Assembly: GCF_030013205.1 (NCBI RefSeq)
Contig: NZ_CP122648.1
Length of the DNA stretch: 64,000 nucleotides
Strand: one strand, 5' to 3'
DNA from: Escherichia coli
GTDB taxonomy: Bacteria > Pseudomonadota > Gammaproteobacteria > Enterobacterales > Enterobacteriaceae
Shown here: positions 2 through 47,885 of the stretch, piece by piece
Layout of the letters: the number at the start of each line of letters is the position of its first letter
How positions within the stretch are numbered: the first letter of the stretch is position 1
Program-made: the position numbers and the translations under genes
Notes under the pieces: model-generated
Seen by the model: the letters and a program-made list of their open reading frames with translations, nothing else
What the model was told of the DNA's origin: nothing
Database searches by the model: none

Positions 2-1417
<1,416 letters not shown>

Positions 1418-1425
1418 CAGAAAAG

Positions 1426-1498
1426 AAAAAGGCCACTCGTGAGTGGCCAAAATTTCATCTCTGAATTCAGGGATGATGATAACAAATGCGCGTCTTTC
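1426..1498 (-). ncRNA. micA: MicA (SraD) small RNA, antisense regulator of ompA/phoPQ mRNAs
   Basis: Minus-strand sequence reads GAAAGACGCGCATTTGTTATCATCATCCCTGAATTCAGAGATGAAATTTTGGCCACTCACGAGTGGCCTTTTT, which I recognise as MicA; sits in the gshA-luxS intergenic region with a terminal hairpin plus U-tract. Confidence 0.8.
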
Positions 1499-1566
1499 AT
1501 ATACTCAGACTCGCATGGGAAGAAAGAGTTCAGAAAATTTTTAAAAAAATTACCGGAGGTGGCTAA

Positions 1567-2082
1567 ATGCCGTTGTTAGATAGCTTCACAGTCGATCATA
1601 CCCGGATGGAAGCGCCTGCAGTTCGGGTGGCGAAAACAATGAACACCCCGCATGGCGACGCAATCACCGTGTTCGATCTGCGCTTCTGCGTGCCGAACAA
1701 AGAAGTGATGCCAGAAAGAGGGATCCATACCCTGGAGCACCTGTTTGCTGGTTTTATGCGTAACCATCTTAACGGTAATGGTGTAGAGATTATCGATATC
1801 TCGCCAATGGGCTGCCGCACCGGTTTTTATATGAGTCTGATTGGTACGCCAGATGAGCAGCGTGTTGCTGATGCCTGGAAAGCGGCAATGGAAGACGTGC
1901 TGAAAGTGCAGGATCAGAATCAGATCCCGGAACTGAACGTCTACCAGTGTGGCACTTACCAGATGCACTCGTTGCAGGAAGCGCAGGATATTGCGCGTAG
2001 CATTCTGGAACGTGACGTGCGCATCAACAGCAACGAAGAACTGGCGCTGCCGAAAGAGAAGTTGCAGGAACTGCACATCTAG
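1567..2082 (+). CDS. luxS: S-ribosylhomocysteine lyase (autoinducer-2 synthase)
   Basis: 171 aa ORF with the LuxS metal-binding HTLEH motif; conserved position next to gshA. Confidence 0.97.
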
Positions 2083-2139
2083 TCAGTAAACTATCTTCAC
2101 AATTAATTGAAAAAAGCCAGTTCAAATGAACTGGCTTAG

Positions 2140-2822
2140 TTGTGCACAGAAAACCCCCAGCTAGGCTGGGGGTTCCGGAAAGCTTTCAGCTTTGAGCCAG
2201 TTATTAAAACCCCTTTTGATTTGTTAAAACACCTTGCGGTCTGGCAACTGCAAGTGTCAAACAAGAAATCAAAAGGGGGTCCCAATGGGGAACGAAAAGA
2301 GCTTAGCGCACACCCGATGGAACTGTAAATATCACATAGTTTTTGCGCCAAAATACCGAAGACAAGTGTTCTACAGAGAGAAGCGTAGAGCAATAGGCAG
2401 TATTTTGAGAAAGCTGTGTGAGTGGAAAAGCGTACGGATTCTGGAAGCTGAATGCTGTGCAGATCATATCCATATGCTTGTGGAGATCCCGCCCAAAATG
2501 AGCGTATCCGGCTTTATGGGATATCTGAAAGGGAAAAGCAGTCTGATGCTTTACGAGCAGTTTGGTGATTTGAAATTCAAATACAGGAACAGAGAGTTCT
2601 GGTGCAGAGGGTACTACGTCGATACGGTGGGTAAGAACACGGCGAAGATACAGGATTACATAAAGCACCAGCTTGAAGAGGATAAAATGGGAGAGCAGTT
2701 ATCGATTCCCTATCCGGGCAGCCCGTTTACGGGCCGTAAGTAACGAAGTTGGATGCAAATGTCAGATCGTGTGCGCCTGTTAGGGCGCGGCTGGTAAGAG
2801 AGCCTTATAGGCGCATTTGAAA
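2140..2822 (+). mobile_element. IS200-family insertion sequence (boundaries approximate)
   Basis: Left-end hairpin AAACCCCCAGCTAGGCTGGGGGTT, then a second stem-loop (CCCCTTTTGATTT…AAATCAAAAGGGGG) that sequesters the RBS, then an IS200 tnpA; lies between luxS and emrB, where I recall no IS in K-12. Confidence 0.7.
2285..2743 (+). CDS. tnpA: IS200/IS605-family Y1 transposase TnpA
   Basis: 152 aa from MGNEKSLAHTRWNCKYHIVFAPKYRR… with the HIHMLVEIPP HuH motif; near-identical to remembered IS200 TnpA. Confidence 0.9.
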   Translation: MGNEKSLAHTRWNCKYHIVFAPKYRRQVFYREKRRAIGSILRKLCEWKSVRILEAECCADHIHMLVEIPPKMSVSGFMGYLKGKSSLMLYEQFGDLKFKYRNREFWCRGYYVDTVGKNTAKIQDYIKHQLEEDKMGEQLSIPYPGSPFTGRK

Positions 2823-2848
2823 AACCTCCGGCTATGCCGGAGGATATT
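2822..2848 (-). terminator. Putative rho-independent terminator downstream of emrB
   Basis: Minus-strand hairpin CCTCCGGCATAGCCGGAGG followed by a T-run immediately after the emrB stop. Confidence 0.5.
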
Positions 2849-2857
2849 TATTTGTAC

Positions 2858-4396
2858 TTAGTGCGCACCACCTCCGCCGCCACCTGCGCCAAATGGCGGT
2901 TTAGCAAACCACACCAGCCCCAGCAAGACGAGGAATATCCCGGCTGACATCCAGAAGATCTCATTGGCGGAAATAATCAGCCCCTGATTGGTGATCTGCT
3001 GGGCAATCCAGCCTGATGCCTGCTGTTGCGTCATTCCCAGTCCTTCCAGTTGACTGTACATCGCCTGGGCATTCGGGTTGAACGGGTTTACCGACTCGGT
3101 TAACTGTGCGTGGTGCATCGACTCGCGGTTGGTCCACATGGTAGTGGTGATGGATGTGCCGATAGACCCCGCCAGCGTACGCGTAAAGTTGGAGAGGCTC
3201 GATGCCGCCGCCAGTCGTTCCGGTGGCAAACCAGACAGCGTAATGGTGGTCAGCGGCATAAAGAAGCAGGCCACTGCGAAGCCCTGGATAAACTGCGGCC
3301 AGGCCGACGCACCAAAATCCATACCAGGTTCAAAGGTATAGGCACGCCAGTAAAAGCAGACGGCATACATAATAAAGCTGAAGGTTACCAGCCGCCGCAT
3401 ATCCAGTTTATGCGCGAAGCGGCCGATAATCGGCGACAGGATCACCGGAATAATCCCTACCGGCGCAGAGGCCAAACCTGCCCACGTTGCCGTGTAACCG
3501 TAGACCTCCTGCAACAACTGCGGCAGCAGAACAATCGCGCCGAAGTAGAGCATATACGCGAGGCTGATACACAAGCAGCCGATGGTGAAGTTGCGCGACT
3601 TAAACAACGACAGATCGACTATCGGGTTATCGTCGGTCAGCTCCCAGACAATCAGGAAGCAGATAGCCACCACTGCCACCACGGTAAGGATGATAATTTC
3701 CTGTGATGAAAACCAGTCCAGCTCTTTACCGCGGTCGAGCATAATCTGCAGGCTACCGATACCAATAACCAGCAGTGCCAGCCCCACGGCATCAATCCGC
3801 CGCCGTTCGGTGCGGGTTTCACGTCCGCGCAGGGTTTGCAGTGTCATCAACACCACCGCCACGCCAATCGGTACGTTGATGAAGAATATCCAGCCCCAGT
3901 GGTAATTGTCACTGATATACCCGCCGAGGATCGGGCCGCAAATTGGCGCGACAATCACCGTCATCGACCATAACGCCAGCGCGATCGAGCGTTTGGCTGG
4001 CGGGTAGTTATTCAGCAATAGACTTTGCGAAAGCGGAATTAACGGCCCGGCGACAATCCCCTGAATCACGCGGAAGAAGATCAGCATATTCAGGCTGCTG
4101 GAGACACCACACGCCCACGACGCAATAGCAAAGGCGATGGTGGACCAGAGGAACAGTTTCACTTCCCCGACGCGCTTTGCCAGCCAGCCGGTAAGCGGGA
4201 TCGAGATGGCATTCGCCACCCCGAAAGAAGTGATTACCCACGTTCCCTGGCTGAGCGATGAGCCCAGATTCCCGGCGATAGTGGGGATCGCCACGTTAGC
4301 AATGGTGGAGTCCAGCACCTGCATGAATGTCGCCAGTGACAGCGCAATCGTCATAATGACCAGTTGCGCGCCTTCCAGCGGTTTTTGCTGTTGCAT
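2858..4396 (-). CDS. emrB: Multidrug efflux MFS transporter EmrB
   Basis: 512 aa from MQQQKPLEGAQLVIMTIALSLATF…, 14-TMS MFS; ORF track extends 3 codons upstream. Confidence 0.95.
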   Translation of the reverse strand: MQQQKPLEGAQLVIMTIALSLATFMQVLDSTIANVAIPTIAGNLGSSLSQGTWVITSFGVANAISIPLTGWLAKRVGEVKLFLWSTIAFAIASWACGVSSSLNMLIFFRVIQGIVAGPLIPLSQSLLLNNYPPAKRSIALALWSMTVIVAPICGPILGGYISDNYHWGWIFFINVPIGVAVVLMTLQTLRGRETRTERRRIDAVGLALLVIGIGSLQIMLDRGKELDWFSSQEIIILTVVAVVAICFLIVWELTDDNPIVDLSLFKSRNFTIGCLCISLAYMLYFGAIVLLPQLLQEVYGYTATWAGLASAPVGIIPVILSPIIGRFAHKLDMRRLVTFSFIMYAVCFYWRAYTFEPGMDFGASAWPQFIQGFAVACFFMPLTTITLSGLPPERLAAASSLSNFTRTLAGSIGTSITTTMWTNRESMHHAQLTESVNPFNPNAQAMYSQLEGLGMTQQQASGWIAQQITNQGLIISANEIFWMSAGIFLVLLGLVWFAKPPFGAGGGGGGAH

Positions 4397-4412
4397 CACA
4401 CGCACCTCTGGA

Positions 4413-5585
4413 TTAGCCAGCGTTAGCTTTTACGATATCGTCGATCAGTTTATTGACAGGTGCCAGGCTGATTTCACGCGCGGTGCTTACCGCTACCGGT
4501 GTGGAACGTACTTTATTTGCCAGTACCTGACCGTCACGGTTAGTGGTATTGACGCTCACCAGCGTGGACAAACCGATACGCAGCGGGTATTGCTCGAGCT
4601 GTTTCTGGTCCAGTTCAATACGAACAGGCAGACGCTGAACGACTTTGATCCAGTTACCGGTCGCATTTTGCGCCGGAAGCAGTGAGAACGCGCTACCTGT
4701 GCCCATATCCAGACCAACCACTTTACCGGTGTATTTCACATCATCGCCGTAAATATCCGTGGTGATAGTGACCGGCTGACCGATACGCATATTGGCAATC
4801 TGCGTCTCTTTAAAGTTGGCATCCACCCACATATTGGTGGCTGGAACGACCGCCATCAGCGGCGTCGTTGGGCTAATTTGTGCCCCAGGCTGTACCGCGC
4901 GGCGGGAGACATAACCGGTCATCGGACTGACAATACGAGTACGCTCCAGCGCCAGCCAGGCGTTACGTACTTCGGTGGCAGCCTGTTGCACGGCAGGCTG
5001 ATCTTCCAGTTTAGTCCCCAGAATCATCGCCTGATTGGCATTGTATTGTTGAATAGCGACGTCCAGTTGTGCCTGGGCACTGGTGACGGCGTCGCGGGCG
5101 TGTTGCAGCTCTTCGCGACCAATCAGGTTGGCATTGCCCAGCGGCACACGGCGGTTGTAGTCGCTTTGTGCTTTCGCGAGGGCGATTTTTTGCACCTCAA
5201 TATTCGCCTGCAACTGTTTGCTGTTAATCATCAGCTGGTGGGTTTGGCGAACGCTTGAAGCCAGTGCAGTTTTGGCTTTTTCAAACGCCTGGCGAGCATC
5301 TGTCGGGTCGAGAGTGACCAGCACGTCGCCTTCTTTTACAAAATCGGTGTTATCGGCCCAGACTTTCGTCACGCTGCCAGACACCTGAGACATAATTTGA
5401 ATCTGATTCCCTGCCACGTATGCGTCATCGGTTTCTTCGAAATGACGCAGTACTAAAAACCAATAAATCCCTATCGCTACGGCAATAATTATAAAGAGCA
5501 AGGTGAGAAGGAGGAGCAGACGCTTACGTTTGCCGCTCTTCTTTACCGGTTGCTGCGGGGTTTGAGTCTCCGCATTTGCGCTCAT
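4413..5585 (-). CDS. emrA: Multidrug efflux membrane fusion protein EmrA
   Basis: 390 aa from MSANAETQTPQQPVKKSGKRKR…; HlyD-like periplasmic adaptor; conserved emrRAB order. Confidence 0.95.
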   Translation of the reverse strand: MSANAETQTPQQPVKKSGKRKRLLLLLTLLFIIIAVAIGIYWFLVLRHFEETDDAYVAGNQIQIMSQVSGSVTKVWADNTDFVKEGDVLVTLDPTDARQAFEKAKTALASSVRQTHQLMINSKQLQANIEVQKIALAKAQSDYNRRVPLGNANLIGREELQHARDAVTSAQAQLDVAIQQYNANQAMILGTKLEDQPAVQQAATEVRNAWLALERTRIVSPMTGYVSRRAVQPGAQISPTTPLMAVVPATNMWVDANFKETQIANMRIGQPVTITTDIYGDDVKYTGKVVGLDMGTGSAFSLLPAQNATGNWIKVVQRLPVRIELDQKQLEQYPLRIGLSTLVSVNTTNRDGQVLANKVRSTPVAVSTAREISLAPVNKLIDDIVKANAG

Positions 5586-34877: not shown

Positions 34878-37800
34878 TCATTTTCCTAATTCTCCAGCTA
34901 AAAGTTCAGCCTGCTTCAAAACAGTCTCTGTGGCGAGCAATGACATATCAGGCGGATAACCATATTTTTTGAGCAGACGTTTTACCACCACGCGAATTTT
35001 TGCTCTTGCTGCTTCTTTCACTGTCCAGTCAAGACTGACATTGTTGCGGATAGCCTCCGTAAGTACGACTGCCAGTTCTCGTAGTTTTTCCTTTTCCATT
35101 AACTCGCGAGCACTGTCGTTATCTGCAACAGCAGAATAGAAGGCATATTCATAAGCGCTGAGGTTTAACTGGCTGGCAAGGCTGTCAGATTCCTGGATAG
35201 TCTTGGCAAGCTTGATTAGCTCATCAATTACCTCCGCTGCGGTCAGTACCTTGTTCTGGTAGCCATTGATTGCAGAGGTCAGCATATCAATCAGTTTTTT
35301 GCCTTGGGTGATACTTTGATTCGAGCGAACCTTGATCTCGTCAGAAAGCAGTTTTTTAAGCGTTTCCAAAGCAATATTTCTGTGTTGGTAATCCTTCATT
35401 TCCTGAAGGAATTCTTCAGAAAGAACGGAAATATCAGGTTTTTGTATCCCAGCAGCGTCAAAAATATCAACAACTTTATCGGTAACCAGAGCCTGATCGA
35501 TAGTCTGTTTTACCCGAACTTCGAGACTGTCATTGTGTTCTTCTTCTGATCCGTCTGAGTTTTCAGTAAATTTATTCAGTCTGGCTTTTACTGCCTGGAA
35601 GAATGCTACTTCGGGTGCCGCTTCCATTGCTTTATCGTGCGGTGTCGCCAATGCAAATGCCTGCGATAAGGCTGCAACCGCAGCGAGGAAACGCATTTTA
35701 CCTTTACCGTTATCCAGCCCTAAAATATGGTTTTCTGATTCAAGAATAATTGTCAGGCGTTGTGAGGTAGTTGCGGCAAAGTAAGCTTTGTAATCGTATC
35801 CATGCATCATGCCTTCCAGGATTTCCAGCTTTTCCTGCATGAGCGTTACGGCTTCTTCCTGAACCTCAGCAGGATCTCCACGTCCACCTGCATCAGAGTA
35901 AAAGGAGAGGGCTTCTTTTAAATCAGAGGCAATGCCCAGATAGTCAACAACCAGACCGCCTATCTTATCTTTATACACACGGTTCACACGGGCAATTGCC
36001 TGCATAAGGTTGTGGCCTTTCATTGGTTTGTCGATATACAGCGTATGCATGCTGGGAGCGTCGAAGCCGGTTAACCACATATCACGCACTATCACCAGTT
36101 TCAGCTTGTCGTCGTCATCCTTCATACGGTTAGCCAGAACCTGACGTTCTTTTTTTGTGGTGTGGTGTTTGGCAATTTCTGGCCCGTCAGCAGCAGAAGA
36201 GGTCATGACGACTTTTATTATACCGTCATTTAAATCATCGCTGTGCCATTCAGGTTTTAAGGCTATGATTTCTTTATATAGTTCAGCAGCAATACGGCGG
36301 GACATGGTAACAATCATGCCCTTACCATGATCGGCATTGGATTTTAAGCGCTGCTCAAAGTGCAGAACCATATCCGCCGCAATCGCTTTAATACGTTTTG
36401 AACTGCCAATCAAACCTTCGATTCTGGCCCATTTAGAACGTTCTTTTTGCGTGAGCGTCAGTTCGTCCTCGTTAAACTCATCATCAAAGTCTTCAATAAG
36501 CTGACGACCTTCATCACTGATGGCAATTTTGGCAAGACGGCTTTCATAAAAGATACGAACTGTTGCACCATCTTCAACGGCCTGCGAGATATCGTAGATA
36601 TCAACATAGTTACCAAAAACAGCAGGCGTGTTGACGTCCGTTTTTTCTATGGGGGTTCCGGTAAAGCCGAGATAGGTCGCATTAGGTAAGGCATCACGCA
36701 TATATTTGGCAAAGCCGTAAACGGTGCGTTTACCTGTTACGTTGCCTTCGCTGTCTTTCACGTCAACTTCTTTGGCGCTGAAACCGTACTGGGAACGGTG
36801 TGCTTCATCAGCGATAACGACAATATTGGTTCTGTCTGACAACAACTCATAGATATTGCTGCCATCATCAGGCTGGAATTTTTGAATAGTAGTAAACACC
36901 ACACCGCCAGAGGCGACACGCAAATATTCTTTGAGTTCTTCCCGGTTGTTGGCCTGTTTTGGTGTCTGACGAAGTAGCTGGGTCGCGGAAGAGAACGTAC
37001 CGAATAGCTGATCATCTAAGTCGTTACGGTCAGTAATCACAACAACTGTCGGATTATCCAGCGCCAGCACAATTTTCCCGGTATAAAACACCATCGAAAG
37101 CGATTTACCGGAACCCTGAGTATGCCAGACTACGCCCGCTTTGCGATCTCCGGTTTTTTGCGCATTAACAAGATCTTTACTGTTACGTCCCTGCTGGCGC
37201 AGTGCCACTTCGGCAGAGGGGGAGTCCGCATTCACCGCTGAGGCACGAATAGTGGAAAGAACTGCTGCATTGACCGCGTAGTACTGGTGATAAGCCGCCA
37301 TTTTTTAACAGTACGGATACTGATAATCCCTTTGCTGTCTTCATGTTTGCTGGCCTCAAACACGATAAAGTGGCGGATTATATCCAGCAGCGTTACAGGA
37401 TTAAGCAACCCCTGTAATAAAACTTCAAGCTGTGGTTGGGTACTGGTGGCTTGCGTTTTACCGTTAGCAGTTTTCCACGTCATATAACGACTGAAATCGG
37501 CAGAAACCGTCCCCGCTTTGGCTTCCAGCCCGTCAGATATCACATTAAAAGCATTGTAGTTAAACAGACCGGGGATTTGGTTCTGATAGGTTTTAATCTG
37601 ATTATAGGCACCTGTTACCGTTGCATTTTCGTCAGCGGCATTTTTAAGTTCGATAACGACTAATGGCAGGCCATTGATGAATAAAATAAGATCAGGTCGG
37701 CGGGTATGGTTGCCTTCTTTGATGGTGAGCTGATTAATGACCAGAAATGCATTATTAGTGGGATCGTTAAAGTCGATCAGGCTGGCCAGTTCTCCTTGTG

Positions 37801-38116
37801 TATTACCATCCTTGCTGACTTCGATATTGATTCCTTCGGTCAAAAGGCGATGAAAGGTTAGATTGTTTGCCATTAGGTCAGGTGAGCTGATCTGCATCAC
37901 CTGTTTTAGAGCTTCTTCACACTTCTGCTCACTAAGGTGCGGGTTAATTCGTTGCAATGCTGTACGCACTTTATCTTCAAGGATAACCTGCTGATAGCTA
38001 CGTAACGGATTGATTCCACTGGGTTCAATGTCCGGGCCGTAAACATACTCATAGCCCAGCCCTTGCAGGTGCTCAATTGCCATTACTTCAATATCGGATT
38101 CGGTCATCTTTGCCAT
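34878..38116 (-). pseudogene. hsdR: Type I restriction enzyme R subunit HsdR, disrupted by a frameshift in an A6 tract
   Basis: Two overlapping minus-strand ORFs (37232..38116 N-terminal part; 34878..37301 C-terminal part with DEAH box [14 protein letters not shown]); frames switch at the AAAAAA run at 37295-37300; restoring A7 gives continuous …[20 protein letters not shown]…. Confidence 0.8.
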
Positions 38117-38174
38117 GCGTACTGTCCTTATTGCCGCTTAACCAGAGAGCGGGCTGTACACCCGCATAATTATT

Positions 38175-39368
38175 TTATGCTACTGATGCGATTGCTTCTT
38201 CCGCATACTGAACCCGTACTTCGCCGCTCATCAGTTTGGGAAGGAGAGTGTCGCGCAGAGATTCTATGTTTTTAATTTGTGAGTTGTTAATACTTATTTT
38301 TTTCCAGAAGAAATCAATCTGTGTAGTGAATTCTTTCACCATACACTCCGGGGGGAGTTTGAATTCTGGGCGTTGTAATCCGTCAGCCGACAGCTGATTT
38401 ACAGTTGAACCGTTAGTTGCAGCAACAACTTGCTCATGCATATCTTTGGAGCAAAGTAAATAGTACAGAAAAGCATTGGTTAAGTAACTATCGTCATTGA
38501 TGCTGATTTTAAATAAATGATGCGTATATATGGATAATTCGCTTTCTGTTTTTGGAATTATAGCAGGATACCCTATGAGTCGATATTCATGGCCCTGTTC
38601 TGTATTGGCTACAATGATATCCCCAGGCTTTATAATATGCCTTTCTTTAAAATCACCATTGTAGTATTTTATACCTGCACTCTTATAACCACCGCCCTCA
38701 AGTACTGAGTTCAAACTAAAAAGTGGAATGCCGTTATCTGACGTGGTAAGGCCGGCTCCCTTGTAGCTTAATCCCTTAGCTACTGTAATATGACAATCAA
38801 GAGTCGTTATTTCCCAATCCGCATGCGTCTCTTCAATAAACCACTGTCTAAATAGGGTTTCTGCCATGGATTCCAGAGTTTTATTCTGGCGATGAAGCAG
38901 GTCTATTTTGTCTTTAAGAGAGGACAAAATAGAGGCGATGGCTTTTTGTTCAGATTCATCAATTGGTAAGTAAAGAGGAATCAAATTTAGCGATGCTTTA
39001 TTTAATTTTGGTTGAGCAGCACCTGTTAAATAAGGAGATAGATCAAGTTGTGAAAAATATTGGATTATCAATGCCGTTAAATGGGGCTTTTTAGCTTTAA
39101 GGACATGAGCGTGATTATTAACCCAAAATTTTCCAGTAGCTTCAAATGCTATAGGTGTTTTTCTGGACTTTAAGTTTTCTCCATCTTCAGAAATAAGGAT
39201 GTAGCTGCCATCAAAAATATAATTGTCGATATAATCGACAATTCCTGACGCTCCATAATATGGAAAATTTCCTTTCTTATGGGCTCGTTCCATAGCACTC
39301 AAAGGAATTCTTTGTGCGTTGCAAAAATCTGCTAATTCAGTTATACAAAAATTTCTCCACCTACTCAT
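38175..39368 (-). CDS. hsdS: Type I restriction-modification specificity subunit HsdS
   Basis: 397 aa; position between hsdM and hsdR; 4-nt overlap with hsdM stop. Confidence 0.85.
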
Positions 39369-40912
39369 AAAACCACCTTCGCCAGATTATCAACGATGGC
39401 TCTGTTCAGACGCGCCTCTTCTTCCAGTTGCGCTTCAAACTCAGCTTTAAGAGCCGTAAAGCGTTCTTTAAAGTCGAAATCGTCTTCTTCATCAGCAAGA
39501 CCAACATAACGGCCAGGTGTCAGCACATAATCGAGTTTAGCAACTTCAGCAATGTCTACTGACGCACAGAAACCAGCGACGTCTTCGTAGTCGCCACCTT
39601 TGTTACGCCAGTTATGATAGGTATCAGCGATGGTTTTTATATCGTCGTCAGAAAGTACTTTGGTACGACGATTAATTAAATGACCGAGATTACGGGCATC
39701 AATAAACAGAATTTCTTTACTACGATCACGATACTGGTTGCTGTTATGACGGTCACGGCGCATAAACCATAATGCAGCAGGGATCTGAGTATTCAGGAAC
39801 AGCTTTGCCGGTAAGTTGACGATACAGTCAATCACATTGGCATCTTTTACCAGTGCAGCACGAATATCACCTTCACCAGAGCTTTTAGAAGTTAATGCCC
39901 CTTTTGCCAGAACAACACCCGCTTGCCCTTTAGGAGACAAGTGATACAAAAAATGTTGCATCCATGCAAAGTTAGCGTTGCCAGCAGGTGGAATGCCATA
40001 TTGCCAGCGGGCATCACCACGAAGCTGCTCACCAGACCAGTCGGAAACGTTAAACGGTGGGTTAGCTATGATAAAATCAGATTTCAAATCTTTGTGAGCA
40101 TCGTTAAGAAATGAACCTTCATTATTCCAGCGAACGTGTTCAGAATTAATCCCACGAATTGCCAGGTTCATTTTTGCCAGACGCCAAGTGGTCTGGTTGG
40201 ACTCCTGCCCATAGATCGAAATATCGTCAATATTTCCCTGATGTGCTTCTACAAATTTTTCTGACTGAACGAACATACCACCAGAACCACAGCAGGGATC
40301 AAAGACACGGCCTTTATAGGGTTCCAGCATGTTAACCAGCAGGCTTACAATAGATTTTGGCGTATAGAACTGGCCGCCTTGTTTGCCTTCTGCCAGTGCA
40401 AATTCACCTAGGAAGTATTCGAATACGTGACCTAAAACGTCAGCAGAGCGTGCTTTGGCATCTCCTAGTGCAATGTTGCCAATCAGATCTATCAGCTCAC
40501 CCAGAACAGTGGCGTCGAGGTTTTGTCGGGCATAGACTTTCGGCAACACACCTTTTAACTGTGGATTGCCCGCTTCGATAAGCTCCATCGCATCATCAAC
40601 CATCTTACCGATTTCAGGAAGCTTGGCCTTAGAAATCAGATAGTTCCAACGTGCAAGCTCAGGGACAAAGAAAACGTTGTAAGCGGTGTACTCGTCTTTG
40701 TCTTCCGGATCAGCACCTGCGAACTCGCCTTTACCGGCTTTCAGCAACTCATAATGAGATTCAAAAGAATCAGAAATGTACTTAAGGAAAATGAGGCCTA
40801 GTACGACGTGCTTGTACTCGGCTGCATCAATGTTTTTACGCAGTTTGTCTGCCGCTTTCCACAGGATGACCTCTAACGGGTCTGTTTTGATTTCTTTAGG
40901 TTTTCTGGCCAT
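39365..40912 (-). CDS. hsdM: Type I restriction-modification N6-adenine DNA methyltransferase HsdM
   Basis: 515 aa; AdoMet-binding [11 protein letters not shown] and catalytic NPPF motifs. Confidence 0.9.
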
Positions 40913-41039
40913 TAGCGTAACCTTATGAAGGGGGAAGATGGCCCTATTTTGCCTTAAAGTTCCGCTTGTTACGAGCTTATACAGCGATTAATTATTATCT
41001 GGTTTTAGTGTGTTCGTGTAGCTCAGCAAGTGCAATGAC

Positions 41040-41400
41040 TCATGGAGTAAATGCTTTGTAGCGGGATTGTAGATGTCAGGTCATTGCCGTCAATGGAGCC
41101 AGTGTCATTGGCATAATTGCTGCACAGCCGATGCCACGCGCACATTCGCTAGTTCACTGTGGTTCATCGTGTGTACTACACCAGTACGCAGTCCGGGAAG
41201 TAACGGCATGGCAGAATCGTTTGTAAAGACGTTCAAGCGGGATTATGTGTACGTAGATGATCTGCTGGATGCAGTCTAAATGATGGAAACAATGGCAGAA
41301 TAGATAGAGGATTATAATAATCTGCATCCACACAAGGGGTTGAACATGAAATCGCCACGCGAATATCGTGATGCCATATTAGCAGTTAATTAGCCGTGTC
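41040..41400 (+). pseudogene. IS3-family (IS2-like) transposase OrfB C-terminal remnant
   Basis: Short frames translate to …TPVRSPGSNGMAESFVKTFKRDYVYVDDLLDAV and …DYNNLHPHKGLNMKSPREYRDAILAVN, resembling the end of IS2 OrfB; no intact ORF. Confidence 0.6.
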
Positions 41401-42508
41401 CGTTTTAGCAGGGACAACTCCAGTATTCAAAAAAGCTTTCTTAGTGCATATGCATGAGGTGAATAGATGTACAGGCTATGACAAACCATAGTTGTAATTT
41501 TTAATGTTTAAAATTCTCCGTTACAGTAGGACATTCCTTGTACATTAAATTCCATCTAAGGTTGAATTTTTAATTTAATAAGGTCGCAATCTAAAATGAT
41601 GTGTATGGGGTTATTTGTAAGATGATTTTTTATTTTTGATAGTGGTGATTAAGGGAGCGGGTAATGTTTGTCTATTCAAAAATATAGAGATTCAAGGTTG
41701 GTAGCAGTTTGGCTTCTTTTATAACCGAAGGGCAGAAAAGCAAGGGGAACTCGAAGAAGCAAGCGCAGCGGCTTCGCAGAGTTAGCCCTTGCTTCTCTTA
41801 TAATTGGCATTATTCATTCAAGAACAATAGGATCTTCGCTTGTACAAGCGAAGCTATAATAAAAACAATCAATTAATAATTTTAAAAGTATTAAACAAGA
41901 ACCTATTGACATTCATAAAATACAAGTTATTTATAATGTATGCCATAAATAAAAAGTTTTATGTCATATGTATCCTGCACTATGTGCAGTTAATGTACCA
42001 CTTGTCCCATAGATGGGAATATTGGAAAGGTTACTTTGTTTTGAAGTAGCCTTTCGTCCTTCAATATTAACGATTACTTATTGCTATTACCAAGTCCAGT
42101 CGAATCGAAGAACATCTTTTATCTGAAACGACTCCTAATACCCGGTTAAAGCCACAATATCTCTCGCATACGTAGACCAAAGAAAAATTATGATATTAAC
42201 TATGTGATTTTTTTTAGTGTTAAGTTGAATAATTAAATACTGGAGAGTTTTCTGTGCACTACCAATTGCTGGTTCATCTGTTCTGCCGCTGATGTTTCTG
42301 ACGAATCTCCCGGTGACACAGAACTGTCCCTCTCTACCAGCCTTTATTCGACTCAATGTCCGGCTGCTGATACGCAGTTATCCCTTCGTATCAATGACTG
42401 ACACTTAAACGTAATGCTTTGGTTGCTGGCGTATCTGACAGCTTCTTCGGCGTGAAGGTCGTTGTGTAAGTATACTTCTTGGTTTATTTAGGCTATATAA
42501 AACCATGA

Positions 42509-43405
42509 CTATGACTTGCTGTTTTCAGTAAGAGTCTTATCATCCAAAGAATTTATTCTAGAAATTCTTTTTAACTCATTAAGATAATCAACCTCGTTTT
42601 CTAAGAACCAATGAAGAACTTTAGAATTGCCAAGTAATTTATTAATATATGACTGGATTATAACGAATTTCAACATATCTGAACCATACTCGGTTTGAAG
42701 CTTTTTCGTTTCTTCCGAAGTTGTTGCCATTTCTTGTTCCAGACGAAGTATGGTTTTTTTTATGTCCTTTTTATAGGGAGTGTTTTTCCCTTTATTTACT
42801 ATCATCGATGCCGGTGTTGCATCCAAGATGCTCATTGCAAATTTTTTACTATAATTATCAAAATTAATCATTGTACCGACTGCTTCAATTTGGCGAATTG
42901 GCTTCATTTTCCTCAAAACGTCAAATGTAGCCTTAGGTATAGGTTTATCAGAAAGTTTCGCAATTACACTTGGATCTATGCCGTTCATCACATTCGCTTT
43001 ATCTTTTATGGCATCAACAGATATGCCCAAAGCAGCACTAAGTTTTTCAATTGATACTTTTGCCAGAGACTTAATTATCATTCTATGTTCTTCAACTACA
43101 TTTATATGATTCACTTGTTTGTTAGGAGTGAAAGCATCATCTATGCTCGAAAGTATACATGGAGCTTTTTCTATACCTAAGTCTTTTAAAGCCTCAACCC
43201 TTAAATGGCCATCAAGTATCTTAGTGACATCTTTATCTTTGTCATAGAATACTATTATTGGTTCAATAATACCTAAGCTTTCGATAGAGGTAACTATTTG
43301 ATGATATTTATGGCTTCGCTTTACGTTTTCTAATAATTCCTTAGATGGAATTAACTTATTAGTTTCCAGGTAAATAAAATTATCGCCAAAACGTATCTGA
43401 ATCAT
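42509..43405 (-). CDS. ParB/Srx-fold protein (ParB N-terminal-like domain), function unknown
   Basis: 298 aa; ParB-like GxxR-containing segment …IIVFYDKDKDVTKILDGHLRVEALKDLGIEKAPCIL…; start overlaps upstream gene stop by 4 nt. Confidence 0.6.
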   Translation of the reverse strand: MIQIRFGDNFIYLETNKLIPSKELLENVKRSHKYHQIVTSIESLGIIEPIIVFYDKDKDVTKILDGHLRVEALKDLGIEKAPCILSSIDDAFTPNKQVNHINVVEEHRMIIKSLAKVSIEKLSAALGISVDAIKDKANVMNGIDPSVIAKLSDKPIPKATFDVLRKMKPIRQIEAVGTMINFDNYSKKFAMSILDATPASMIVNKGKNTPYKKDIKKTILRLEQEMATTSEETKKLQTEYGSDMLKFVIIQSYINKLLGNSKVLHWFLENEVDYLNELKRISRINSLDDKTLTENSKS

Positions 43406-44298
43406 TTTAATACCTCTTTGTTTACTGGGGTTAATATCTGAGATGGTAGTTCTGAAAGATTCTCTTGTTCAAGTATATGTTGAAAGCTTTTATTTATCAT
43501 TATGATGTTAAAAATCTCATTTACTATTAGTAGGTTGGTTTTTATGAATTTTGAGTTGTTATAAACAGATTTATGTTCAGCGATACTATTTTCATAAAGC
43601 TCAATCAACTCCTCTGCAGTCATCCTTTTTGATGGTTTGTGATAATAAAATCCGGCTGCTTTTGCACCTTTATTCCCAACTGTTCTTTGATTTAGAATGT
43701 GTTTTATCTTTATAATGTCCCGACTTTTTATTAATTTTTTATCATATGCTTCGGTAAGAATATCTTGTGCTTCCTCAGTTTCACATCTTGCAAATTGCAC
43801 TGCGAGATACAGAGGCAAATTACCCCGTTCGACTGCTGAGAGAAGTTTATGCTCTCCCTTATCAAGTAGCATATTAATACTGCTCACCCAGTTCGATGAA
43901 TATCCAGTAATCTCACTTATTTCGGAGTCTGAAAGTCCTCTGATTTTCATGTCTTTAATCACCTGTAATAACTCATTAGAACGTGGTCTTCTCCTTGCAA
44001 TGTTTTCAACTAAACTCATAACGTAAGCATCTTCTTCTGATACATCTCTTATAATTGCTGGAATAATAGTTTCACCTAATGCAACGAGAGCCTCTATTCT
44101 CCCTTGACCACAAATTAAAGCATATTTGAAATCGCCTTCATCAATAGCTCTTACGCTTATTGGCTTGCTTAATCCTCTTTTTTTTATGCTTTCCTTTATT
44201 TCTTCATGCACTACCTTATTTCTTGTTCGTGGGTTAAGAAATTTTATTTTTGCAATCTCAATTTGAATTATTGGGAATTCATTTTTTTCAGGCAGCAT
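43402..44298 (-). CDS. ParB/Srx-fold protein with HTH, function unknown
   Basis: 298 aa; ParB N-terminal-like segment …FLNPRTRNKVVHEEIKESIKKRGLSKPISVRAIDEGDFKYALICGQGRIEALVALGETIIPAIIRD… then HTH-like region; GQGR replaces the canonical GERR box; overlaps recombinase gene by 11 nt. Confidence 0.65.
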   Translation of the reverse strand: MLPEKNEFPIIQIEIAKIKFLNPRTRNKVVHEEIKESIKKRGLSKPISVRAIDEGDFKYALICGQGRIEALVALGETIIPAIIRDVSEEDAYVMSLVENIARRRPRSNELLQVIKDMKIRGLSDSEISEITGYSSNWVSSINMLLDKGEHKLLSAVERGNLPLYLAVQFARCETEEAQDILTEAYDKKLIKSRDIIKIKHILNQRTVGNKGAKAAGFYYHKPSKRMTAEELIELYENSIAEHKSVYNNSKFIKTNLLIVNEIFNIIMINKSFQHILEQENLSELPSQILTPVNKEVLK

Positions 44299-45844
44299 AT
44301 AGTTCCCTCACTTTCATGCGAGTAATAATTTGTAGAAGTTTATCAAGATTATCAAATCTATAGAGATCTAATCGAATGTTGTTTGTTTCCGTCATGCACA
44401 TTTTATTATATTCGTTTTCAATCTTTGGTATGATATAAAAATCAAGAGGTGAAATATTTTGTGAATTCATTCGTATAACAATTGTTATGTCTGCTTTCTG
44501 TGAGTTATCAAACCGGACTTTCCATCTAAGTTTACCTGATTTCATATGTATGCATTTAGTAACAAGGACGGAAATTAAAAACTCATCATTGATGTAAAGC
44601 ATTGGGGCATATTTATACTCGTCTATATGACAGTTACTTTTTAAAATTTCACCCTTAAAATCCTCAATTATCTCTGAGTAAAATGATCTTAGTGCTTCAT
44701 TTATTTTGAGATAGCTGTAATCATGTTCTGGCTTATAACCAATCAAAGTATATGCTCTTAAAAGACCACCAAATCGGGTTCTATAAACAGAAGATGAAGG
44801 GCCTGTATCATCTTCATCAATGATAAAGCCTGATAGTTTTCCATTAGATTCTAATTTTTGTTTTAGTTTTTCTAATAGATCTTCATTAGTCAAATGAATG
44901 GATCGGAGCTGAATTATTTCTTGAGCTTTATTGTATTTTTTCTTTGAAATAATAGGTTTATATGCCTTGTCACATCTAACCCATTCATGTTTGGGGTTTT
45001 TTACAAGCCTACTTTTTAATTTAGATGAGGTTTTGTTATATATGTTGTTTCCAATATATTTTTCATTTGTCAAAATTTGATGTATTTTTGCACGAGTCCA
45101 TAATGTTCCATTTTCTGCAGGTATGTTCTGTTCATTTAATCTCTCAGCAATAATGAATTCTGGGACGTTATTATCTATAAAGAGATCATATATTCTATTT
45201 ACAATTTTTATTTCATTTTTTGGTCCCGGAATTAATATTACCCTATCTGTTTGAATACTCTTTCTTTTGCGGAAACTCAATATTTCTTTAGCTATGCCAT
45301 TTTCGTCTACTAAAAGACGTCTCAGCCCATAACCAGCCATACCGCCTTGATGATAACCAAGCTTTATTAAATTTACTTGCCCTATAAATACCTTTTCAGA
45401 TAGATTCCTGCTGTGATATGCAGCACTAGATCTTTTTATATTCAGTATAACAGAGGACTCTAAAGGGAAATCTTTAGTGGGTATAGGTTCGGAACAATAT
45501 ATAAGATCTACACCATTTCTCTCAAATAGAAAGGAATAATATGCCGCTTCATCACTATTTTGAAAACGACCAAAACGGCTCACATCATAAAATAATACAG
45601 CCTGTATATCTATTTTCTTTTGTTCTACATCGCTAAGTAACTGCTGCAAAGAATGCCTGCCTACGATACTGACTCCGCTCTTACCTGCATCATCGTAGGT
45701 ATAAGCGATTTCCATATTGTTCTTTTCAGCATAATCTTTGATATATTCGGACTGATTATGTAAAGAATATTGCTGATGGTCGGTAGACATCCTCAAGTAC
45801 TGCGCGACCCTAACTCTATGATTTTTGTCATTTTCGCTAGCCAT
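44288..45844 (-). CDS. Large serine recombinase (resolvase/invertase catalytic domain plus recombinase domain)
   Basis: 518 aa; motifs YLRMSTDHQ (catalytic Ser), DDAGKSG, YDVSRFGR, and recombinase-domain WTRAKIHQILTNEKYIGNNIY. Confidence 0.75.
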   Translation of the reverse strand: MASENDKNHRVRVAQYLRMSTDHQQYSLHNQSEYIKDYAEKNNMEIAYTYDDAGKSGVSIVGRHSLQQLLSDVEQKKIDIQAVLFYDVSRFGRFQNSDEAAYYSFLFERNGVDLIYCSEPIPTKDFPLESSVILNIKRSSAAYHSRNLSEKVFIGQVNLIKLGYHQGGMAGYGLRRLLVDENGIAKEILSFRKRKSIQTDRVILIPGPKNEIKIVNRIYDLFIDNNVPEFIIAERLNEQNIPAENGTLWTRAKIHQILTNEKYIGNNIYNKTSSKLKSRLVKNPKHEWVRCDKAYKPIISKKKYNKAQEIIQLRSIHLTNEDLLEKLKQKLESNGKLSGFIIDEDDTGPSSSVYRTRFGGLLRAYTLIGYKPEHDYSYLKINEALRSFYSEIIEDFKGEILKSNCHIDEYKYAPMLYINDEFLISVLVTKCIHMKSGKLRWKVRFDNSQKADITIVIRMNSQNISPLDFYIIPKIENEYNKMCMTETNNIRLDLYRFDNLDKLLQIITRMKVRELYAA

Positions 45845-46126
45845 GCACGAAACCTCATGGATGATTCAATACAATGTAGTGGATAAAATTGATCAAATTT
45901 CAACCGAATTCAACTGTTTTATCATTGATTAGAGCGAATTTGGTAGATCTTCGAGGTGTATGATAATCGAGAAGAGATGTGAATTATTTAGCTGATATGA
46001 CCGACAGCTTTCGTTATGTGGACTCAATGTCCCCATTTGTAAATGGCTATGCTTAGTCCACATAGGTTAATGGTGTGATTATTAATTCTTTAACTAAATC
46101 AAGATAGTTAATCCATCATGGGAGAG

Positions 46127-47356
46127 TTATGCGGCCATAACTTTGCATTTTTGAGACGAAACATAGTCACTCCACCATTGCATGAGAACCACCCGTTCAG
46201 TGAGATACTCTGCACGATTGTAGGCTGCAATTATTTCATCTTTCTTCGAGTGGGCAAGGGCGGCTTCTAAGACATCAGTCCTAAACTTGCCAGACTCCTC
46301 AGCAGCCGTTCTAGCAATGGATCGCATACCGTGAGCTACAAGCTCACCTCCGAAACCCATACGGATTATGGCCGCATTAGCTGTTTGTTCATGCATGTGA
46401 TTGAGTGGAGCTTTGATACTGGGGAACACCCACTCTCTATGCCCGCTGATGACTTTCATTAAATCCAAAACTCGCAAAGCTTCTTTGCTCAGTGGAACTT
46501 TGTGAGGCTTCTTCATTTTCATAAACTCCGCCGGGATGTTCCACATGCCAGTTTCAATATCAATATCTGACCATCTTGTGCGAACAGCTTCACCTGGGCG
46601 AACCCATGTGAGAAGTTGCCACTCAATCAGTAGCCTTGTTTCCAAACGGATAGAAGCATTGTTTAGAGCAACCAAGAAGCGAGGGAGTTCGGAAGGGGGT
46701 AATGCTGGCATATTCTGTTTTTTTGGCTTGCTGAACCGTTGCCCCAGGTTGTCTGCCGGGTTGAATTCTATGAGTTCTTCTGTTGCTGCATAGCGGAAAA
46801 TTTCATTCAGGCGGGATATGATGCGGCGAAGTGTTTCAAGGACACCTCGTTTTTCTATGGGTTCTAAATGCTGTTTAAGCATTTTAGGGCGAATCTCCTT
46901 AATTGGGGTATCACCCAATGTGGAAAAGATATTTCTCTCTAGGCTTCGCCAGATGTCGTTAGCATGATCTTGGGAGATGCCTGACGTTTTGACTTTCTCA
47001 TCAAGCCACTTCTTGGCTACTGCTTGAAATGTATGTTCCGTGGCATCTTTCAGTGCATTGGCTTTTTGGTTGTTATGAACTTGGGGGTCTATACCATTTG
47101 TAAGCAACGACAAGTATTCATCACGTAAAGCTCGTGCCTTCGCAAGTGTAAGGTGAGGATAGGTTCCTAAGCTCACCTTAGTTCGCTTTTTGGTCACAGG
47201 CACTGCATATCTGAAATACCAATTTTTCTTCCCTCCCTTCGCCAGGGGAGCGATTCGCAACAGCAAACCATCGCCGTCAAAAAGGTTAACCTCTTTTTCG
47301 GCAGGTTTGGTGCTTTTGATTTCAGTGTCAGTGAGCTTCTTAGCGATTTTGGCCAT
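46127..47356 (-). CDS. int: P4-family tyrosine integrase next to ssrA
   Basis: About 409 aa from MAKIAKKLTDTEIKSTKPAEKEVNLFDGDGLLLRIAP…; C-terminal catalytic region with R…HGMRSIARTA…Y; ORF track extends 27 codons upstream. Confidence 0.9.
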   Translation of the reverse strand: MAKIAKKLTDTEIKSTKPAEKEVNLFDGDGLLLRIAPLAKGGKKNWYFRYAVPVTKKRTKVSLGTYPHLTLAKARALRDEYLSLLTNGIDPQVHNNQKANALKDATEHTFQAVAKKWLDEKVKTSGISQDHANDIWRSLERNIFSTLGDTPIKEIRPKMLKQHLEPIEKRGVLETLRRIISRLNEIFRYAATEELIEFNPADNLGQRFSKPKKQNMPALPPSELPRFLVALNNASIRLETRLLIEWQLLTWVRPGEAVRTRWSDIDIETGMWNIPAEFMKMKKPHKVPLSKEALRVLDLMKVISGHREWVFPSIKAPLNHMHEQTANAAIIRMGFGGELVAHGMRSIARTAAEESGKFRTDVLEAALAHSKKDEIIAAYNRAEYLTERVVLMQWWSDYVSSQKCKVMAA

Positions 47357-47522: not shown

Positions 47523-47885
47523 TGGTGGAGCTGGCGGGAGTTGAACCCGCGTCCGAAATTCCTACGTCCTCGGTACTACATGCTTAGTCAGTCTTTACAT
47601 TCGCTTGCCAGCTGCGGACGGACACGCCACTAACAAACTAGCCTGATTAAGTTTTAACGCTTCAACCCCAGGCAGGGCTTCCACGCGATCTCTTTTGGGT
47701 TTGACCTCTCTTGATCCCCGTCCTAAGAGCGGAGGCTAGGGAGAGAGGGCTCTAAGCAGGTTATTAAGCTGCTAAAGCGTAGTTTTCGTCGTTTGCGACT
47801 ATTTTTTGCGGCTTTTTACGAGGCCAACCGCCCCTCGGCATGCACCTTGGGTTTCGCAAATCCCGTCGAATCCAGAATCAGCCCC
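47523..47885 (-). ncRNA. ssrA: tmRNA (SsrA, 10Sa RNA)
   Basis: Minus-strand sequence matches remembered E. coli tmRNA from GGGGCTGATTCTGGATTCGACGGG to …GCTCCACCA (363 nt). Confidence 0.95.

Follow-up and report, generated by a model that had tools for sequence, protein, structure and literature searches.

A truncated and decayed IS2-subgroup insertion sequence located beside the type I restriction-modification operon of an ssrA-integrated island in Escherichia coli

The spacer between the hsdM gene of a type I restriction-modification (R-M) operon and a parB gene, on an island of Escherichia coli, raised the question of what the transposase-like DNA located there is, whether it has a function and whether it took part in bringing the neighbouring genes together. 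The first-pass annotation of the window, i.e., the whole 64-kb stretch of DNA that was analyzed, had described positions 41040-41400 as an IS2-like transposase remnant, with fragmented frames encoding the C-terminal end of an IS3-family OrfB, which separates two modules of the island and is consistent with their stepwise, IS-mediated assembly.

The closest intact relative was found on Klebsiella pasteurii plasmid pkle02 (NZ_CP073237.1, 46149-47459; transposase WP_228299445.1) and a second one on K. variicola pKGB1a (WP_253616148.1; 76% amino acid identity by tblastn, and 74% nucleotide identity between this copy and the remnant by blastn). Both elements were delimited at 1311 bp; in each, the orfA and orfB frames overlap, with a slippery A7G run. 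Their ends are IRL TGTAATAGCCCCCGTTTAAACCGGACAC, which starts with TGTAATAGCCCCC, and IRR GTGTCCGTTTTAGCAGGGGCAACTCCA, and the copies are bordered by the 5-bp direct repeats CTATT and CTTGG; the target duplication of IS2 is also 5 bp long. Both elements are labeled 'IS3 family transposase' by PGAP, with no element-level name.

The first-pass annotation had proposed nucleotide alignment against IS2/IS3-family references as a check; alignment with the Klebsiella elements by blastn defined the boundaries of the remnant and its missing portion. Positions 41117-41422 are the last 306 bp (23%) of an insertion sequence of approximately 1311 bp, dead and truncated, which belongs to the IS2 subgroup of the IS3 family; the first 1005 bp are missing. 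The interval given before starts ~77 bp too far to the left, in non-IS DNA, and on the right it stops short of the last 22 bp of the IRR. The IS-derived interval should therefore be annotated as 41117-41422, with a complete IRR. The features of the remnant and of the island are listed in Table 1.

Table 1. Positions in the window of the remnant, its parts and the surrounding genes.
Feature	Position	Strand	Remarks
Whole remnant	41117-41422	+	IS positions 1006-1311 of 1311 bp; blastn 86.3% over 306 bp
Left limit of the remnant	41110-41117		Uncertain by ~7 bp
Truncation junction, hsdM-upstream DNA / IS interior	41110-41117	.	Homology to the intact IS begins here
Decayed 3' end of orfB	41115-41393	+	Final 92 codons, transposase catalytic domain
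GAA codon in ...NGMAESF..., DDE-triad Glu (conserved)	41214-41216	+	Read from the sequence
In-frame TAA	41277-41279	+	TCA (Ser) in the intact relative; alignment and translation
In-frame TAG	41301-41303	+	TGG (Trp) in the intact relative; alignment and translation
Complete right inverted repeat (IRR), core GTGTCCGTTTTAGCAGGGACAACTCCA	41396-41422	+	Terminal CA-3'
GTATT	41423-41427	+	Putative surviving right-hand copy of the 5-bp target duplication
hsdM upstream spacer	40913-41116	-	Non-IS context; more conserved than the hsdM coding sequence
glaH	29266-30243
Alpha-amylase pseudogene	30580-32277
IS1	32329-33026
Ankyrin-repeat gene	33037-33648
IS1	34168-34832
hsdR	34878-38116	-	Frameshift-split into two ORFs
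hsdS	38175-39368
hsdM	39365-40912
Two ParB_N/RepB genes	42509-44298
Large serine recombinase	44288-45844
Tyrosine integrase	46127-47356
ssrA	47523-47885

The conceptual OrfB remnant matched the Pfam family rve_3 above the gathering score (E=4.8e-11), and its top match among the NCBIfam models was IS2 TnpB (E=1.6e-20, 73.9 bits, profile positions 201-285 of 301). The generic IS3 model of NCBIfam, transpos_IS3, was matched at E=1.1e-15 (57.7 bits, positions 288-369 of 369); this score falls under the cut-off set for whole proteins, as no more than the C-terminal 92 codons are left. Blastx against a small local database gave 82.6% identity over 92 amino acids to OrfB of the intact Klebsiella element (residues 218-309, E=5e-48), and tblastn against plasmids, which retrieved the intact relatives, gave E=5e-38. 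The assignment to the C-terminal part of an IS3-family OrfB, made from the sequence in the first-pass annotation, was borne out by these matches, which go well past what chance would produce.

Both peptides quoted in that annotation lie in a single forward frame, which reads ...RSPGSNGMAESFVKTFKRDYVYVDDLLDAV, the TAA codon, MMETMAE, the TAG codon, IEDYNNLHPHKGLNMKSPREYRDAILAVN and the natural stop codon TAG at 41391-41393. The frame is broken by two nonsense codons and by no frameshifts. Glu is the sole catalytic residue kept of three; its assignment to the DDE triad follows from what is known of the IS3-family and retroviral-integrase core (PMC3219604). In the intact relative the second Asp is found in ...WLTDNGS..., 36 residues upstream of the Glu, and the window shows ...CHWHN... 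at that place.

At the right end, the remnant has the terminal repeat expected of the IS3 family (5'-TG...CA-3'): the IRR ends with ...CTCCA-3' and shows one mismatch in 27 to the IRR of the K. pasteurii element, which pairs with its own IRL. The IRR tip, TGGAnTTGcCCCT, equals that of IS2 apart from one base in the remnant, when compared with the published sequence ...GGGGCAAATCCA (PMC3219604). Reverse-complemented, the end of the remnant reads TGGAGTTGTCCCTGCTAAAACGGACAC; it differs from the K. pasteurii IRR at one position and at its tip is similar to the IS2 IRR, TGGATTTGCCCCT... (PMC3219604). Homology to both intact copies ends exactly at the CA-3' tip of the IRR. This edge looks like an authentic transposition junction, which cannot be proven with the left copy of the target duplication gone. 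No pentamer matching GTATT was found at the left junction, and the left-hand copy would have been lost with the deleted part.

At the left end, homology starts inside orfB, just past the ...WLTDNG... codons, among which is that of the second catalytic Asp of the intact relative. The missing 5' part, with IRL, orfA and both catalytic Asp codons, was found nowhere in the 64-kb window by blastn or tblastn, and its relocation by an inversion or a split was rejected on these empty searches. OrfA and the slippery site of the programmed -1 frameshift between orfA and orfB are absent from the window because of the truncation, and the sequence is therefore a fragment and not an insertion sequence.

A 22-nt repeat (41047-41068 and 41223-41244) hinted at a second, more decayed IS fragment to the left of 41117. 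This candidate was rejected by a shuffle test based on local alignment of 40913-41109 with IS2, IS3, both Klebsiella elements and the remnant, in which the scores stayed at shuffle level (210/300 and 229/500 shuffles). IS similarity of 41040-41116 was likewise at shuffle level, as 210 of 300 shuffles reached the observed score.

The remnant sits on a chromosomal island integrated at the tmRNA gene (ssrA), and the region 24000-48000 is 100% identical to E. coli ETEC4079 (NZ_CP122643.1). In the window and in ETEC4079 the hsdR frameshift generates overlapping ORFs of 807 and 294 amino acids; the gene is intact in WCHEC020031 and others. Judging from the sequence, the type I system is probably restriction-deficient here, yet modification-capable. 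The two IS1 copies bracket the ankyrin-repeat gene, which is shorter than the 870-bp version of WCHEC020031, and the first IS1 also truncates the alpha-amylase-family pseudogene. Upstream of the island in the sister strain WCHEC020031 (locus 1308-3899), a genuine IS2 is split by an IS3 with a 3-bp duplication, GCT. The split point, between the OrfB codons EWL and TDNG, is near the position at which the remnant is truncated, probably by coincidence.

Approximately 340 of 5426 complete E. coli genomes hold at least part of the remnant (279 with at least 80% of the 391-bp query), always on the chromosome. Blastn of these genomes gave no intact IS copy around the matches, and all E. coli versions are truncated. 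On plasmids, hsdM and the IS were matched separately and never jointly. A scan of species-representative genomes yielded two further truncated copies and an IS of Yersinia similis cut by a contig end.

The same truncation junction was found in the window, in 730V1, MB06022 and ST540, and in Kluyvera and Pseudocitrobacter. Identity of the block was 93% for 730V1, 89% for MB06022, 94% for Pseudocitrobacter vendiensis and 100% for Kluyvera cryocrescens (hsdM to remnant). The junction is common to variants that have diverged by 7-12% over three genera and is therefore far older than the present arrangements. In this respect the remnant serves as an evolutionary marker: by the single shared truncation junction, the hsdRSM block present in ~6% of complete E. 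coli genomes, in Kluyvera and in Pseudocitrobacter goes back to one ancestral arrangement.

In K. cryocrescens NBRC 102467 (NZ_BCTM01000053.1), window positions 33042-41784, which run from the ankyrin gene via hsdRSM to the remnant, were matched at 98.3% overall and at 100% from hsdM through the remnant. Such identity would indicate a very recent inter-genus transfer, or possibly a contamination of the type-strain assembly.

The lesions differ among the variants. The window carries TCA to TAA and TGG to TAG changes, 730V1 has two 1-bp deletions and a TAC to TAA change, and MB06022 has insertions of 4 and 2 bp. Only ~12 bp of the IS are kept past the junction in ST540, followed by 218 bp of unrelated DNA. 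When the intact Klebsiella element was compared with the majority consensus of the remnants, substitutions were distributed 4/4/23 over codon positions 1/2/3 (chi-square p=9e-6), and this divergence therefore built up under coding constraint. Sites variable among the remnants were distributed 9/12/8 (p=0.64), which indicates no constraint. The lineage-specific lesions and the even distribution of substitutions over codon positions therefore identify the remnant as an old scar in neutral decay. In overall divergence the remnant (90-94% identity) does not exceed the hsdM coding sequence (88-93%). The level of divergence alone fails to separate neutrality from weak constraint, which the indels and the codon-position pattern do.

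For placement within the family, genuine IS2 (1331 bp) and IS3 (1258 bp) were reconstructed from strain WCHEC020031 as references. The IS2-type transposase was the nearest in a comparison with OrfB of IS2, IS3 and ISSen4: amino acid identity was 48.8% to IS2 OrfB (residues 207-290, blastx), 27% to IS3 OrfB and 31% to ISSen4 OrfB. By these sequence comparisons the element is placed in the IS2 subgroup of the IS3 family, yet as an element other than IS2. The term 'IS2-like' was accordingly right at the level of the subgroup and would be wrong for IS2 proper. The top model is IS2 TnpB, the IRR tip resembles that of IS2, and the intact relatives have 5-bp duplications; of the remnant's own duplication only one flank survives. 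A heavily mutated piece of the classical E. coli element IS2 could account for the top model and for the IS2-like tip, and has next to no chance of being the correct identification: the identity to IS2 OrfB is to be set against 82.6% to another intact element, and blastn with sensitivity for distant matches (65-70%) never tied the remnant to IS2 in the 5426 complete E. coli genomes. Compared with the Klebsiella element, changes are mostly at third codon positions and therefore arose in a living lineage distinct from IS2. With 48.8% amino acid identity and no blastn match in place of near-identity to the 1331-bp IS2, an IS2 identity is effectively refuted.

As to the neighbours, the remnant is indeed positioned between hsdM and parB, as had been described; it lies, however, inside the R-M block, and the neighbouring DNA changes on the right, ~375 bp away. 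Directly after the block and the remnant, 730V1 has the integrase gene and ssrA, without the ParB/recombinase cassette. The two are followed in MB06022 by hypothetical, MPN and ThiF genes, and in Pseudocitrobacter by yet other DNA. In all three, homology is unbroken from hsdM through the remnant to ~41796-41804 (88.8-93.3% conserved) and ends at the 3' foot of a conserved hairpin, 41734-41800 (RNAfold, -34.6 kcal/mol for 41725-41812). Since homology runs ~375 bp past the end of the IS, the remnant is a passenger in the R-M block, and the variable joint is not at the IS. The long-term partner of the remnant is the R-M block and not the ParB/recombinase cassette.

A perfect 20-bp palindrome, CTTCGCTTGTACAAGCGAAG, adjoins the hairpin at 41834-41853, and the motif GCTTCGC / CAAGCGAAG recurs in the alternative right-hand sequences. 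The hairpin/palindrome region may be a recombination or protein-binding site.

Other variants are broken within the spacer. ST540 matches the ParB side from 41534 on, and 41129-41533 are swapped for 218 bp of AT-rich DNA (ST540 locus 5090-5307). This replacement occurs in ~50 E. coli genomes and resembled neither the IS nor any other part of the window. D2 matches the ParB side from 41388 on, and a complete IS3 adjoins the remnant's final 35 bp; in place of the whole R-M block, a SIR2-family gene and ypjA are found on the left. The D2 arrangement (D2 locus 3809-5000) points to an IS3-associated deletion or replacement with its breakpoint inside the remnant.

A second IS3-family relic, unrelated to the first, is located at 42273-42501 (+). 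It corresponds to the interior of an ISSen4-like OrfB (residues ~23-99), is decayed, with an in-frame stop and a frameshift, and its end lies 8 bp away from the stop codon of parB. Its segment 42327-42458 shows 71.6% DNA identity to ISSen4 in E. coli IAI1, and PGAP annotates it in some strains only (e.g. ST540, DLI.5a). The ParB-ParB-large serine recombinase cassette, 42060-46160, behaves as an indel of ~4.1 kb; in 730V1, which lacks it, a sequence resembling 41906-42059 (74%) is directly beside the integrase gene. A search with PADLOC defence models gave no match for the recombinase or the ParB proteins, except a weak ParB_N-type match to a methyltransferase model. On comparison of these sequences the hsdM-parB spacer is clearly a rearrangement hot spot.

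Could the remnant be the recombination joint at which IS activity brought the R-M and the ParB/serine-recombinase modules together? Its position between hsdM and parB, the second IS3-family relic abutting parB, the complete IS3 at 41388 in D2 in the absence of the R-M block, and the replacement of 41129-41533 in ST540 would all fit such a role. Against it, three lineages with different right-hand neighbours stay homologous for ~375 bp beyond the end of the IS; the left junction, at which the IS is truncated, is on the hsdM side and is the same in every variant; the flank on the IRR side is also common to the R-M-linked block; and nothing ties the IS of the remnant to the arrival of the ParB cassette. 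We consider this role unlikely. A stepwise, IS-mediated assembly through the remnant, as proposed in the first-pass annotation, is unsupported in view of the block of homology from hsdM to ~41796-41804 in 730V1, MB06022 and Pseudocitrobacter. The IS-driven mosaicism of the spacer is real and the idea of assembly is plausible in spirit, but the remnant is not evidence for it.

Judging from the decay pattern, the remnant probably has no present function either. The fragment has one end and no intact transposase, where mobility takes two ends and a source of transposase, and it therefore cannot transpose; an intact copy of the parent IS able to act in trans was not found by blastn in the 5426 E. 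coli genomes. Indels are seen in the remnant of every lineage. The adjoining spacer, 40913-41116, was conserved at 97.1%, 91.7% and 97.5%, compared with 93.4%, 88.3% and 90.1% for the hsdM coding sequence. The best sigma70-like site of the region, TTGACG-16-TACAAT, runs from 41093 to 41066, faces hsdM and lies outside the remnant; it is a consensus match only. In the promoter scan, the number of sigma70-like sites did not exceed the shuffle expectation. The remnant was rejected as a promoter source for hsdM, as the best site is in non-IS DNA and the count of sites is at shuffle expectation. In the hsdM-parB spacer no Rfam family was matched, apart from a chance snoRNA match (E=0.25).

The remnant might still have been co-opted, either through the 68-codon ORF 41073-41279, as the source of a small protein, or in cis, for instance with the IRR as a binding site or as an outward promoter acting on hsdM or on the downstream spacer. 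The ORF does have an ATG, the IRR is nearly intact in all lineages and the fragment has survived 7-12% divergence. Yet the first 14 codons of the ORF consist of non-IS DNA, and other lineages have it disrupted in other ways (730V1 by a nonsense codon and a 1-bp deletion, MB06022 by insertions); substitutions are even over codon positions; most or all of the remnant is missing from ST540 and D2; the best hsdM-facing promoter-like site lies outside it; and no Rfam match was obtained. Its persistence is explained by hitch-hiking between hsdM and the conserved hairpin, and co-option is very unlikely. Equally slight is the chance that the remnant was kept as part of an exchanged R-M cassette (ankyrin gene, hsdRSM, remnant and ~375 bp, with the hairpin 41734-41800 as right edge), in which the IRR stub or the adjoining hairpin would act in recombination or insulation when the cassette is exchanged between Escherichia, Kluyvera and Pseudocitrobacter. 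The remnant carries little weight and probably has no mechanistic or functional consequences.

The best explanation, with a probability of about 0.9, is the insertion of an IS2-subgroup element followed by a one-sided deletion and neutral drift as a passenger of the R-M block. An insertion sequence of ~1.3 kb would have transposed into DNA on the right-hand side of the type I R-M operon in the ssrA-integrated island, making the junction 41422/41423. Later, a deletion or illegitimate recombination would have removed the first 1005 bp, i.e., IRL, orfA, the frameshift site and the part of orfB with both Asp codons. The same event would have fused the interior of the IS to the upstream region of hsdM at ~41110-41117. 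It would have left a 306-bp relic that neither moves nor codes, having a single end and no transposase; this relic presumably drifted neutrally as it travelled with the hsdRSM block among E. coli lineages and to Kluyvera and Pseudocitrobacter. These steps start from the observed identity, extent and orientation of the remnant, its lost coding capacity, its age relative to the lineage splits and its linkage to the R-M block. That the insertion came first and the one-sided deletion second is inferred, because no empty site or full-length copy at the locus was found in the E. coli genomes, plasmids and species-representative genomes.

The locus is already covered by a RefSeq/PGAP pseudogene call, and it is an ordinary IS pseudogene. 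PGAP places at 41124-41393 an 'integrase core domain-containing protein; internal stop; missing N-terminus', and the same locus is annotated in RefSeq genomes as a partial 'integrase core domain-containing protein'. In contrast to the present analysis, the PGAP annotation contains neither the IRR nor the subgroup nor the limits of the IS-derived DNA. IS2, the prototype of the subgroup, resembles the remnant in being its top NCBIfam model, in the OrfB identity of 48.8% and in a similar IRR tip, TGGAnTTGCCCCT, and its length of 1331 bp is close to the 1311 bp of the intact relatives, which make 5-bp duplications. It is unlike the remnant in showing no DNA similarity by blastn, less than 50% amino acid identity and another inner IR sequence. 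The K. pasteurii pkle02 element is much closer, with 86.3% nucleotide identity over the 306 bp, 82.6% amino acid identity, one mismatch in 27 in the IRR, the same orientation and the same position of the stop codon. The Klebsiella elements are complete, with 1311 bp, IRL and target duplications, whereas the remnant comprises positions 1006-1311 only and carries two nonsense codons.
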